A DNA stretch of 64,000 nucleotides from Escherichia coli (GTDB taxonomy: Bacteria > Pseudomonadota > Gammaproteobacteria > Enterobacterales > Enterobacteriaceae). The translations under genes and the position numbers were made by a program. The notes below the pieces were generated by a model. The model was not told where the DNA came from. It ran no database searches and was given only the letters and a program-made list of their open reading frames with translations. The stretch lies in the NCBI RefSeq assembly GCF_003334335.1, contig NZ_QOWQ01000005.1; one strand, written 5' to 3'. This document shows positions 54,632 through 56,910 of the stretch, piece by piece; the first letter of the stretch is position 1; each line of letters begins with the position of its first letter.

Positions 54632-55816
54632 TTAAACGGGCTGCCCCTGATGCGACATCCGCGTCGCCAGCGGCAGCCAGCACAGCACGATCAACAATCC
54701 CATTAAGGTCATCAACAACCCCAGGCTGCCCTGACCGGTTTGCGGCAACATCGCAGAGAGCGACGCCAGCACGCCGGAACCAATGTTTTGCAGACCGCCG
54801 ACCAGCGCGCCAGCCGTGCCCGCCAGGAAGGGGAACGGCTCCATCGCGCCGCTGGTCGCCAGCGGAAACAGCATCCCGGCACCGAAAAAGAACAGCGCGG
54901 CGGGAACGAGCAGCGTCCAGACATTCATCACGCCAAACCAGTCGGGGATCCACATCAGCAAGCCAGCCAGCAGGCAGCAGATAACCGACTGCCACATTAA
55001 CGTGGAGAAGCGTTTATTGGGACGTCCGGCAAACCATGCGCCAAAAAACGCTGCCGGAATCGGCAGAATAAACAAAATACTGACCGTCATACTGCTCAGC
55101 CCTAACACCGCGCCCATCAGCACGCCGGAGCAGGCTTCAAAGGCGGCAATCCCGGCCAGACCGCCAATCAGCATCAGCAAATAACAGTTAAAACCGCTGT
55201 TACCGAAAAGCGTTTTATAACTGGTAAGCAGGCGCGTGCGCGGTGCATCGACCGGACGCGTTTCCGGCATCCAGCGGGCCATACTGAAGGTCACACCAGC
55301 ACAAAGAACCAACAAAAAGAGATAACAGGCGCGCCAGTTCCACATCGTATCCAGCAGACCGCCGATTAGCGGTGCGAGCAACGGACTGACGAGAATCCCC
55401 ATGTTTAACAGGCTGTTAGCATGGCGCAACTGTGTCCGTTCATATAAATCTCGCGGTAAAGTACGCGCCATTACGCCGCCAACGCCGGTGCCCATCCCCT
55501 GCATCGCGCTGGCGGCAATCAACACCGTCAAACTGGAGGTCGTGACCGCGACCAGCGTTGCCAGCATAAAAATGGACATTCCGACGAGGATCACCGGTCG
55601 GCGGCCCACGCGGTCGGAAATCGGGCCATAAAACAGCTGTGAGACACCGTAAGTCAGCAGATAAGCGCCCATTACGCTCTGCACCGCCCCTTCACGGACG
55701 TTGAGATCGCGCGCCATATCGGCAATAGCTGGAATATAAATGGTTTGCGCCATCTGACCGACGGCCACGAGTAATACCAACATCAATAACAAATTGACGT
55801 TTCTTTGCCTTTTCAT
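54632..55816 (-). CDS. emrD: MFS multidrug efflux pump EmrD (394 aa)
   Basis: Trimmed to MKRQRNVNLLLMLVLLVAVGQMAQTIYIPAI…; 12-TM MFS. Confidence 0.92.
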   Translation of the reverse strand: MKRQRNVNLLLMLVLLVAVGQMAQTIYIPAIADMARDLNVREGAVQSVMGAYLLTYGVSQLFYGPISDRVGRRPVILVGMSIFMLATLVAVTTSSLTVLIAASAMQGMGTGVGGVMARTLPRDLYERTQLRHANSLLNMGILVSPLLAPLIGGLLDTMWNWRACYLFLLVLCAGVTFSMARWMPETRPVDAPRTRLLTSYKTLFGNSGFNCYLLMLIGGLAGIAAFEACSGVLMGAVLGLSSMTVSILFILPIPAAFFGAWFAGRPNKRFSTLMWQSVICCLLAGLLMWIPDWFGVMNVWTLLVPAALFFFGAGMLFPLATSGAMEPFPFLAGTAGALVGGLQNIGSGVLASLSAMLPQTGQGSLGLLMTLMGLLIVLCWLPLATRMSHQGQPV

Positions 55817-56095
55817 TATCACGGATGCTTTTATAAAAATAATTAGAATAAGTCACTACGCATTCCCATAAATGCGGGAGAGGAATCTATCACATTGATG
55901 AATGTTAGCCAGATATACGCCAGGAATGGGGAATTGTTTAGCGGCAGAATATGTAAACAAAAGCGGCAATAAATGTTGCCGGGAGAGATGGTAGGGCGGA
56001 TAAGATGCGTCAGCATCGCATCCGACACCAACCCGCACGCTAAATATAAAAGGGGAGCGGTTTCCCGCTCCCCTTTGGTGCGACTTGAATCTGAA

Positions 56096-56185
56096 TTACT
56101 TCAGGTATTTCAGAACAGCATCAAGCAGTTGCAGTGCTGCAACAATGAGTTTGAGGATAAGAATGGCGATATCCACCAGGTTCAT
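56096..56185 (-). CDS. tisB: Type I toxin TisB (29-aa SOS-induced membrane peptide), not in ORF track
   Basis: Reverse-complement translation gives MNLVDIAILILKLIVAALQLLDAVLKYLK-stop; followed on the minus strand by a terminator hairpin (about 56050-56078). Confidence 0.93.
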   Translation of the reverse strand: MNLVDIAILILKLIVAALQLLDAVLKYLK

Positions 56186-56421
56186 ACGCGTCTCCTGTGG
56201 TTCAGGAGCACTGCCAGCTGACGTACCTTTCCGCTGCCTGTTGCCAGCTGTTGTGCACGCGGTATCTCAAGGAGAAACGTTGTGCTTGTTGACATAACAC
56301 AGTGTGCTCACGCGGGGTTAAGGCGCTGACGGCACCACCCGTTTCAGCCAGGACTTAGTGCGCCGGGTAACGATGCGGCCCCCGCATAACACATTGCGTA
56401 CAGTGATATTATAGAAGTTTA

Positions 56422-56437
56422 CTGTATAAATAAACAG
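56422..56437. promoter_or_regulatory. LexA box (SOS box) between divergent tisAB and istR
   Basis: CTGTATAAATAAACAG matches the CTGT-N8-ACAG consensus perfectly. Confidence 0.9.
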
Positions 56438-56479
56438 TAATATTTGGACAAAACGCAAACTGTGATCGATACTCAACTA

Positions 56480-56622
56480 TGCACTAAATACGTCAAAATT
56501 CGTGCCGAAATTGCGCGTTCTGCGCGGAACACGTATACTTTCAGTGTTGACATAATACAGTGTGCTTTGCGGTTACCAGCCGCAGGCGACTGACGAAACC
56601 TCGCTCCGGCGGGGTTTTTTGT
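56480..56622 (+). ncRNA. istR: IstR antitoxin sRNA (IstR-2 about 140 nt; IstR-1 about 75 nt from about 56546; shared terminator)
   Basis: Candidate promoters (TTGGAC-18-GATACT; tatact at 56534-56539), 21-nt stretch 56546-56566 nearly identical to 56288-56308 in the tisAB leader, terminator gaaacctcgctccggcggggtttttt; 5' ends approximate. Confidence 0.75.
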
Positions 56623-56749
56623 TATCTGCAATTCAGTACAAAACGTGATCAACCCCTCAATTTTCCCTTGCTGAAAAATTTTCCATTGTCTCCCCTGTAA
56701 AGCTGTGCTTGTATAAATATTGTTAAACACAAAACCAACAAGGTCCCCA

Positions 56750-56848
56750 ATGACTACTTCCATGCTCAACGCAAAACTACTACCAACTGCGCCATCCGCC
56801 GCAGTGGTCGTCGTGCGTGTGGTGGTGGTCGTCGGCAATGCGCCGTAG
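56750..56848 (+). CDS. ivbL: ilvB operon leader peptide IvbL (32 aa), not in ORF track
   Basis: Translation MTTSMLNAKLLPTAPSAAVVVVRVVVVVGNAP-stop, with the Val/Leu-rich control codons. Confidence 0.93.
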   Translation: MTTSMLNAKLLPTAPSAAVVVVRVVVVVGNAP

Positions 56849-56871: not shown

Positions 56872-56910
56872 AAAACCCCGCCGGCGCAAACCGGGCGGGG
56901 TTTTTCGTTT
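56872..56910 (+). terminator. ilvBN attenuator terminator
   Basis: aaaaccccgccggcgcaaaccgggcggggtttttcgttt: GC stem plus T-run between ivbL and ilvB. Confidence 0.85.

Follow-up and report, generated by a model that had tools for sequence, protein, structure and literature searches.

Positions 56040-56630 of the window, by which we mean the whole 64,000-nucleotide stretch of Escherichia coli DNA that was analysed, almost certainly represent tisB/istR-1, a type I toxin-antitoxin module of the E. coli K-12 chromosome. This locus is already known and no new system is present here. Among chromosomal type I toxins, TisB is the one whose link between the SOS response and fluoroquinolone-tolerant persisters is best documented, and the tisB mRNA is the reference case for long-distance ribosome standby. 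The module of E. coli K-12 MG1655 was reportedly described by Vogel et al. in 2004, Darfeuille et al. in 2007 and Romilly et al. in 2019 and 2020. Alignment showed that 591 of the 591 bases in this segment are shared with E. coli K-12 MG1655 (100% identity, as with many other strains), the RefSeq annotation of the identical K-12 match is tisB, and curated models matched both the toxin and the sRNA. An alignment of 56040-56630 against published istR/tisAB sequences was the check proposed in an earlier, sequence-only reading of this DNA, and its outcome agreed with that reading: all elements it had named were present where it had placed them or a few bases away, and it was right to treat the system as previously described rather than novel (PMC6690012, PMC7708055, PMC11264685, PMC4147584). 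The segment thereby serves as a positive control, as a complete sub-60-aa regulatory module that is missed by ORF tracks was recoverable from raw sequence.

The identities and coordinates of the parts, the conservation and covariation of the sRNA-mRNA duplex, the Shine-Dalgarno (SD) hairpin and the protein-type evolution of tisB come from the present analysis, and LexA dependence, processing, S1/standby, RNase III cleavage, membrane action and persistence come from the literature. Transcription starts, processing and cleavage sites were taken from work on the identical K-12 sequence. TisB toxicity, repression by IstR-1, the +1, +42 and +106 mRNA isoforms and RNase III cleavage would likewise carry over from that sequence (PMC6690012, PMC7708055, PMC4147584).

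The module lies between emrD and ivbL-ilvBN, as expected of tisB/istR-1 and as supported by NCBIfam and RefSeq (Table 1), with the annotated K-12 neighbourhood showing the gene order yidF, emrD, ysdE, tisB, ivbL, ilvB, ilvN. The sequence-only reading had named the emrD-ivbL gap as the site, and both flanks were confirmed by NCBIfam equivalogs and by RefSeq; the annotated small ORF ysdE within the gap had been overlooked. No istR RNA feature was found in the RefSeq PGAP record inspected, though tisB is annotated there, so that the sRNA is absent from that standard annotation as well as from the ORF track. Weak Rfam P6 and naRNA4 matches nearby fell below the gathering score and coincide with the attenuator hairpin of ivbL and with a REP-like palindrome. 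A 34-nt second match to the IstR terminator proved to be the rpmBG terminator upstream of mutM and not a second or degraded locus, the same conclusion on the short terminator-only match having been reached in PMC11264685.

Table 1. Features of the tisB/istR-1 segment and its flanks (positions are those of the window).
Feature	Position	Strand	Basis
emrD	54632-55822	-	NCBIfam equivalog; RefSeq annotation of identical K-12 region
ysdE small ORF	55898-55972		annotated in RefSeq K-12 region
tisB transcription terminator	56049-56076	-	perfect 12-bp G+C-rich hairpin followed by T-run; inverted-repeat and terminator scans
tisB, 29-codon hydrophobic toxin ORF	56096-56185 (stop included)	-	ORF list, NCBIfam, RefSeq
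'tisA' ORF, 37 codons	56182-56295	-	ORF list
tisB Shine-Dalgarno AGGAGA	56191-56196	-	mRNA +206..+211
IstR-1 target and ribosome standby site, tisB leader	56288-56309	-	mRNA +93..+114; repeat, pairing table
5' stem-loop/pseudoknot element of active +42 mRNA	56325-56353	-	about +50..+77, from PMC7708055
5' leader of primary tisAB transcript	56360-56401	-	removed by processing at +42
tisAB promoter -10 TATAAT	56408-56413	-	read from sequence; hexamer in PMC11264685 Table 1
LexA box TACTGTATAAATAAACAGTA	56420-56439	unstranded	consensus scan
istR-2 promoter: -35 TGGACA, 17-bp spacer, -10 GATACT	56445-56473	+	promoter scan; hexamers in PMC11264685 Table 1
IstR-2, longer SOS-induced isoform	56481-56620	+	Rfam match, promoter position; start placed from the -10
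istR (Rfam RF01400)	56491-56620	+	150.1 bits against gathering score of 45; model 1-130, full length
istR-1 constitutive promoter: -35 TTGCGC, 17-bp spacer, -10 TATACT	56511-56516 (-35); 56534-56539 (-10)	+	sequence; PMC11264685 Table 1
IstR-1 antitoxin sRNA, about 75 nt	56546-56620	+	5' antisense segment 56546-56567, internal hairpin, terminator hairpin
IstR-1 terminator hairpin	56595-56618, then U-run	+	terminator scan
ivbL	56750-56848	+	NCBIfam equivalog; RefSeq annotation of identical K-12 region

Species-representative genomes were scanned with a degenerate back-translation of TisB residues 12-27, in which K12, Q19, D22 and K26 were fixed and the hydrophobic positions left open. This search identified 47 loci, all in Enterobacteriaceae and spread over 11 genera (Escherichia, Salmonella diarizonae, Citrobacter, Enterobacter, Leclercia, Lelliottia, Siccibacter, Phytobacter, Trabulsiella, Pseudenterobacter and Huaxiibacter), 42 of which had upstream sequence long enough to align. 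Wherever the flanks were long enough the module was found between emrD and ilvB, and all 19 loci tested from divergent genera carry an Rfam istR match beside tisB on the other strand. Cross-genus conservation falls to about 0.5 directly outside 56046 and 56625, which indicates that the module is delimited by its two terminators; its left edge is the tisB terminator, with conservation rising from 0.49 to 0.86 at 56046. This sharply bounded conservation and the fixed synteny of the module across 11 genera are additions of the present analysis.

The minus-strand ORF at 56096-56185, which the sequence-only reading had called as a 29-codon hydrophobic tisB, translates to MNLVDIAILILKLIVAALQLLDAVLKYLK and passed the NCBIfam TisB equivalog cut-off, with full-length matches (1-29) to NF011340 (69.6 bits, cut-off 53) and TIGR04459 (59.9 bits, cut-off 38). 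TisB here carries the N2 variant, the same as the K-12 lineage, which is a minority variant that marks this lineage (PMC11264685). The 29-codon ORF is kept with the same ATG start in all 47 related loci, and the 39 distinct tisB coding sequences among them vary at 10, 7 and 16 sites in codon positions 1, 2 and 3, respectively. Residues D5 and L9-L11 are invariant although the search pattern had left them open, codon 30 is a stop in all loci with all three stop codons in use, and both alternative frames are closed in all sequences compared. Taken together, the substitution pattern, the invariant residues, the constant stop and the closed alternative frames indicate that tisB evolves as a protein.

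Analysis of the intergenic control region identified a perfect CTGT-N8-ACAG core at 56422-56437 within a LexA box whose 20-mer is 2 spacer positions off the idealised palindrome. No other site in the 64 kb came within 3 mismatches of the palindromic consensus, none of 100 shuffles yielded a match, and the core is kept in 40 of the 42 loci, with a spacer that varies. A perfect LexA box between divergent promoters had been proposed beforehand; the core was confirmed, and its placement required correction, as the box does not lie in neutral spacer: situated between the tisAB -10 and the istR-2 -35, it extends over the -35 and spacer of the tisAB promoter and ends 5 bp upstream of the istR-2 -35. 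At the level of a sequence motif, then, the LexA box expected for SOS control of tisB/istR-1 is present at the tisAB promoter, and LexA control of tisAB has been reported (PMC4147584, PMC11264685). The tisAB -10 is TATAAT or TATACT in 42 of 42 loci, the istR-2 promoter is conserved across genera, and the istR-1 promoter shows a -35 of TTGCG[CT] in 41 of 42 loci and a -10 of TATACT in 38 of 42. The promoter hexamers of the module agree with those tabulated for MG1655 in PMC11264685.

On the plus strand, the prior suggestion of an sRNA gene with its own terminator was upheld by the RF01400 match at 56491-56620, which covers most of IstR-2 and all of IstR-1, and by the hairpin at 56595-56618; the two isoforms have a common 3' end. 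From the position of the istR-2 -10 we infer a transcript start near 56480. The position of the istR-1 promoter hexamers sets the start of IstR-1 at about 56546, which bears out the sRNA 5' end assigned in the sequence-only reading. These isoforms invite the alternative that the antitoxin function lies with the LexA-controlled IstR-2, IstR-1 being a bystander or a processing product. The 22-nt antisense segment is present in IstR-2 as well, its predicted opening cost is similar in the two isoforms (8.9 vs 9.0 kcal/mol), and the proximity of the IstR-2 promoter to the LexA box (5 bp) would have IstR-2 co-induced with tisAB. However, IstR-1 possesses an independent promoter (TTGCGC, 17-bp spacer, TATACT) that is conserved across genera, and IstR-2 has been reported not to repress tisB (PMC11264685), so we consider this alternative extremely unlikely and retain IstR-1 as the antitoxin.

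A repeat finder detected a direct repeat at 56287-56308 and 56545-56566 with 21 of 22 positions identical, and the 64-kb window held no further site within 4 substitutions of the 21-mer repeat. Because the two transcripts run from opposite strands, the sequence-only reading had proposed sRNA-mRNA complementarity over 21 nt; the complementarity was confirmed and is maintained by compensatory changes across 11 genera, and its length was revised to 22 bp. The duplex of 56546-56567 with 56288-56309 contains two G.U pairs in this sequence, has a predicted energy of -34.8 kcal/mol and ends 92 nt upstream of the tisB SD. Watson-Crick or G.U pairing was found at every duplex position in at least 39 of the 42 loci, and positions just outside 56546-56567 are mostly mismatched, making the helix sharply bounded. 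In a 30-sequence alignment from the 42 loci, 99.2% of cells were paired, in comparison to 20-50% when the 3' partner was slid by 1-3 columns, and 0 of 500 shuffles reached the observed duplex values. In the 42-locus comparison 6 of 924 duplex cells were mismatched, for example as A.C in three Citrobacter species. In the 30-sequence alignment, changes on both sides occurred at three pairs (A-U to G-C in 12 sequences; C-G to U-A and U-A to C-G once each), and four pairs vary only between G-C and G-U. This cross-genus covariation in support of the IstR-1/tisB duplex is a further addition made here. Prediction with the whole IstR-1 against the whole mRNA gave -78 kcal/mol vs a shuffle mean of -53, with an over-extended duplex that was not informative; the -34.8 kcal/mol refers to the 22-nt segment.

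Conservation of this kind could also be read at the level of DNA, with the 22-nt repeat being a duplicated promoter-like TTGACA element, a binding site for a protein or a tract of gene conversion, and having no RNA-RNA role. Both copies do contain TTGACA, a perfect -35 hexamer, and their high conservation could stem from DNA constraint as well. Neither TTGACA, however, is followed by a -10 hexamer at the right spacing, and the changes on both sides at three positions together with the rarity of mismatched cells run counter to such a reading. The one-sided differences are overwhelmingly transitions that keep a G.U wobble, which DNA identity would not favour, a bias that speaks for constraint on RNA pairing and against identity at the DNA level. 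As direct binding and competition experiments have in addition been published (PMC6690012), and mutagenesis of the compensatory type is reported for this locus in the literature, we give the DNA-level explanation practically no credence and the RNA duplex remains our interpretation of the repeat.

The same duplex bears on the status of tisA, since the tisA AUG at 56295-56293 (mRNA +107..+109) lies inside it. Were tisA a real leader peptide in the manner of mok for hok, IstR-1 would cover the tisA start and thereby block coupling into tisB, an arrangement that fits the position of the AUG within 56288-56309, the 4-nt overlap of tisA with the tisB start (56182-56185) and the retention of the 37-codon ORF in more than 99% of E. 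coli loci, the implication of which was called unknown in the paper reporting it (PMC11264685). Across genera, however, tisA is not conserved as a coding frame, which is an additional result of our comparison: ACG replaces the AUG in 25 of the 42 species-level loci, the frame changes and the length ranges from 19 to 66 codons, and a 34-nt hairpin insertion inside tisA is confined to Escherichia, Salmonella and some Citrobacter. Position 56294, which makes the tisA AUG, is the same position that covaries with IstR, so that its A/G variation behaves as that of an RNA-pairing position; in 24 of the 42 loci the ACG comes with the matching IstR change at 56552. The 37-aa product had no NCBIfam family match, no experimental evidence for tisA translation is reported in PMC11264685, and the standby mechanism has been demonstrated in vitro (PMC6690012). 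We therefore regard translational coupling through tisA as highly improbable, and each of the rival explanations weighed here is contradicted by comparative data or by the literature. Judged from the sequence comparison, tisA is very probably not a gene and most likely a non-coding part of a structured 5'UTR, and the cross-genus data indicate that its conservation above 99% within E. coli stems from RNA constraints rather than coding. The tisAB leader of the sequence-only reading needs adjusting in this detail.

Numbering of the tisAB mRNA was anchored on the mutants C50/C51, G54, C55, U56, G57, C74, A75, G76 and C77 named in PMC7708055. Position 56401, located 7 nt downstream of the tisAB -10, is the only +1 that fits these names to the minus-strand sequence, and it follows that +42 is 56360, +106 is 56296, the IstR-1 target spans +93..+114 and the tisB AUG is at +217. 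The 5' end of the RNase III product (+106) falls inside the duplex which, together with the location of the target 92 nt before the SD, agrees with the published description (PMC6690012). An RNAalifold consensus on a 24-sequence alignment of the 5'UTR showed the tisB SD (AGGAGA in 40 of 42 loci, AGGAGG in the other 2) sequestered by an anti-SD CUCCU in a local hairpin, columns 206-211 pairing with 220-225; this hairpin is conserved and its closing pair shows a compensatory UA to GC change. Opening of the RBS is predicted to cost some 10 kcal/mol in each of the +1, +42 and +106 isoforms, leaving it closed in all of them, and opening of the target in the E. coli sequence 11.1 kcal/mol in +1 and 7.0 in +42; in the full-length RNA the IstR target pairs with approximately +38..+56, part of which is lost on +42 processing. 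These opening costs are model values that agree in direction only with the published switch.

Further upstream, the 5' stem-loop and pseudoknot are needed for S1 and 30S standby binding (PMC7708055). Conservation over this region (56326-56355, +47..+76) reached 0.99-1.00, which fits its reported importance, and its sole variation was C77 to U, which keeps a G54.U77 pair. The region is thus invariant across genera and provides no covariation for or against its pairings. A third partial IstR-complementary copy was observed at +1..+21 (56381-56401, core 56385-56396) in the Escherichia-Salmonella-Citrobacter clade. It is very unlikely that this copy acts as a second weak docking site for IstR-1, be it on the mRNA prior to processing or on the 41-nt leader once released; if it did, the leader might titrate IstR-1 or help it to meet its target ahead of processing. 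The predicted energy of -17.3 kcal/mol, surpassed by several chance sites in the window (-21 to -23), spoke against its use as a second IstR site.

Assembled on these coordinates, the mechanism published for this system (PMC6690012, PMC7708055, PMC4147584, PMC2826370) would operate in the window as follows, and none of the present observations speaks against it. In undamaged cells LexA bound at 56420-56439 would block the minus-strand tisAB promoter, with IstR-1 being made constitutively from its own plus-strand promoter. DNA damage would lead to LexA cleavage and to a tisAB mRNA of about 350 nt from +1 (56401), a primary transcript that would be inert, since a hairpin closes off the tisB SD and the standby region upstream of it is base-paired. 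On processing at +42 (56360), the single-stranded standby site at +93..+114 (56309-56288) would become exposed beside the 5' hairpin/pseudoknot, and S1 and the 30S subunit may load at this site and travel some 100 nt to the RBS as the RBS hairpin breathes. The 5' 22 nt of IstR-1 (56546-56567) would pair with exactly that standby site and exclude the ribosome, and the resulting duplex would be a substrate for RNase III, yielding a dead +106 mRNA (56296). Once tisB mRNA exceeds IstR-1, the 29-residue TisB would enter the inner membrane and collapse the proton-motive force and ATP, resulting in drug-tolerant dormancy.

Within E. coli, a 2.1-kb query spanning the flanks found the module in 4,349 of 5,425 matching genomes, the rest aligning at the flanks only. 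The module is missing from about 20% of complete E. coli genomes, as already published; presence/absence, the minority N2 TisB and the short terminator-only matches are all in PMC11264685. In strain SF-468, homology stops just after ysdE (approximately 55976) and resumes at approximately 56630, past the IstR terminator. In this module-less allele the gap is occupied by a 157-bp single-copy filler that occurs in 1,060 genomes, the type strain ATCC 11775 among them. Neither an Rfam match at threshold nor a convincing small hydrophobic ORF was detected in the filler, and a replacement toxin or sRNA in the tisB-less allele was rejected on these grounds.

In comparison to known systems, the module does not differ from tisB/istR-1 of K-12 MG1655, with which it has the sequence, the flanks emrD, ysdE, ivbL and ilvB, and the N2 variant in common. 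The dinQ/agrB pair of E. coli is likewise a LexA-controlled type I system that encodes an SOS-induced small inner-membrane peptide, in which translation is limited to the 5'-processed mRNA and the sRNA, encoded divergently, uses a repeat for pairing (PMC3567139). Its peptide and sRNA are, however, unrelated in sequence to those found here, it occupies another chromosomal site, and NCBIfam and Rfam assigned no window element to it. The E. coli type I pairs zor/orz and shoB/ohsC differ in that they are not LexA-regulated and not sequence-homologous, and show different copy-number behaviour across E. coli (PMC11264685). The hok/sok pair is also a type I system with a small membrane toxin, an antisense RNA antitoxin and a duplex cut by RNase III, but there Sok blocks translation of mok, the overlapping leader ORF on whose translation hok depends. 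No conserved translated leader ORF of this kind was found among the 42 tisB loci, as the start, length and frame of the equivalent ORF tisA are not conserved, and unlike hok, tisB is controlled through its standby site.

The tisB/istR module was not found in every E. coli genome, as a 157-bp single-copy filler (positions 974-1130 of the tisB-less allele, L003) replaced window positions ~55977-56630 in 1,060 of 5,426 complete genomes (~20%), among them clone D i14 and ATCC 11775, the type strain. Genomes with the filler lack tisB and istR as well as the LexA box and a REP-like element. The module keeps its synteny across 11 genera, so the tisB-less state seems to have arisen by lineage-specific replacement or loss. 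The locus was altered in other ways among E. coli genome matches to the 591-nt query (window 56040-56630). IS elements (IS1A, ISKox3) were inserted within or beside the tisB/istR region in some strains (hits H27, H43, H44 and H55), and in one strain (H41) the match was limited to the first 394 nt of the query, so that this strain has lost its istR side or carries other sequence there. In strains of both kinds, one partner may have been knocked out naturally.

Features of the emrD-ivbL region in window coordinates
Feature	Position	Strand	Description
ysdE	55898-55972	+	24-codon ORF between emrD and tisB; MNVSQIYARNGELFSGRICKQKRQ
REP-like palindrome GGCGGATAAGATGCGTCAGCATCGCATCCGACA	55995-56027		within block absent from tisB-less genomes
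tisA ORF	56182-56295	-	upstream of tisB in the same mRNA
Hairpin insertion	~56240-56275		34 nt, inside tisA, UTR region
Third motif copy CATAACACATTG	56385-56396		partial; mRNA +6 to +17
IstR terminator segment	56596-56629	+	hairpin, T-run and 9 nt downstream
P6-like match	56874-56900		ivbL-ilvB attenuator

The sequence-only reading described only the tisB/istR module in the emrD-ivbL gap and overlooked ysdE, an ORF annotated by PGAP in K-12. Matches to ysdE in Escherichia and Trabulsiella loci were only weak (63–75% identity by tblastn). In K-12, where the region is identical (NZ_CP032667.1, L001 positions 2501-3091), the RefSeq PGAP annotation lists tisB but no istR ncRNA feature, even though istR reaches 150 bits with the Rfam RF01400 model. 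At the REP-like palindrome the Rfam naRNA4 match was sub-threshold (22 bits; gathering score 59.5). A weak, likewise sub-threshold match to Rfam P6 (22 bits; gathering score 50) was rejected, as it is the G+C-rich terminator hairpin of the attenuator and no sRNA.

The tisA ORF was unconserved outside Escherichia and some Citrobacter. Among 42 alignable Enterobacteriaceae loci its start codon was ACG in 25 and its length ranged from 19 to 66 codons, and the hairpin insertion within it was clade-specific. At its 5' end, the primary tisAB transcript carries a partial third copy of the IstR-complementary motif, a copy restricted to the Escherichia-Salmonella-Citrobacter clade. At -17.3 kcal/mol, the duplex predicted for IstR-1 at this copy is weaker than those at several sites that match by chance in other parts of the window.

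Across the 11 genera the IstR terminator was more conserved (0.95–0.99) than terminators usually are. Almost all E. coli genomes, tisB-less ones included, gave a second BLAST location because the IstR terminator region is identical to the rpmBG terminator. Short matches were already noted previously (PMC11264685) without naming the rpmBG site. The rpmBG terminator, which lies upstream of mutM (L002 positions 1501-1534), matched the segment at 34/34 positions, with similarity ending at either edge.
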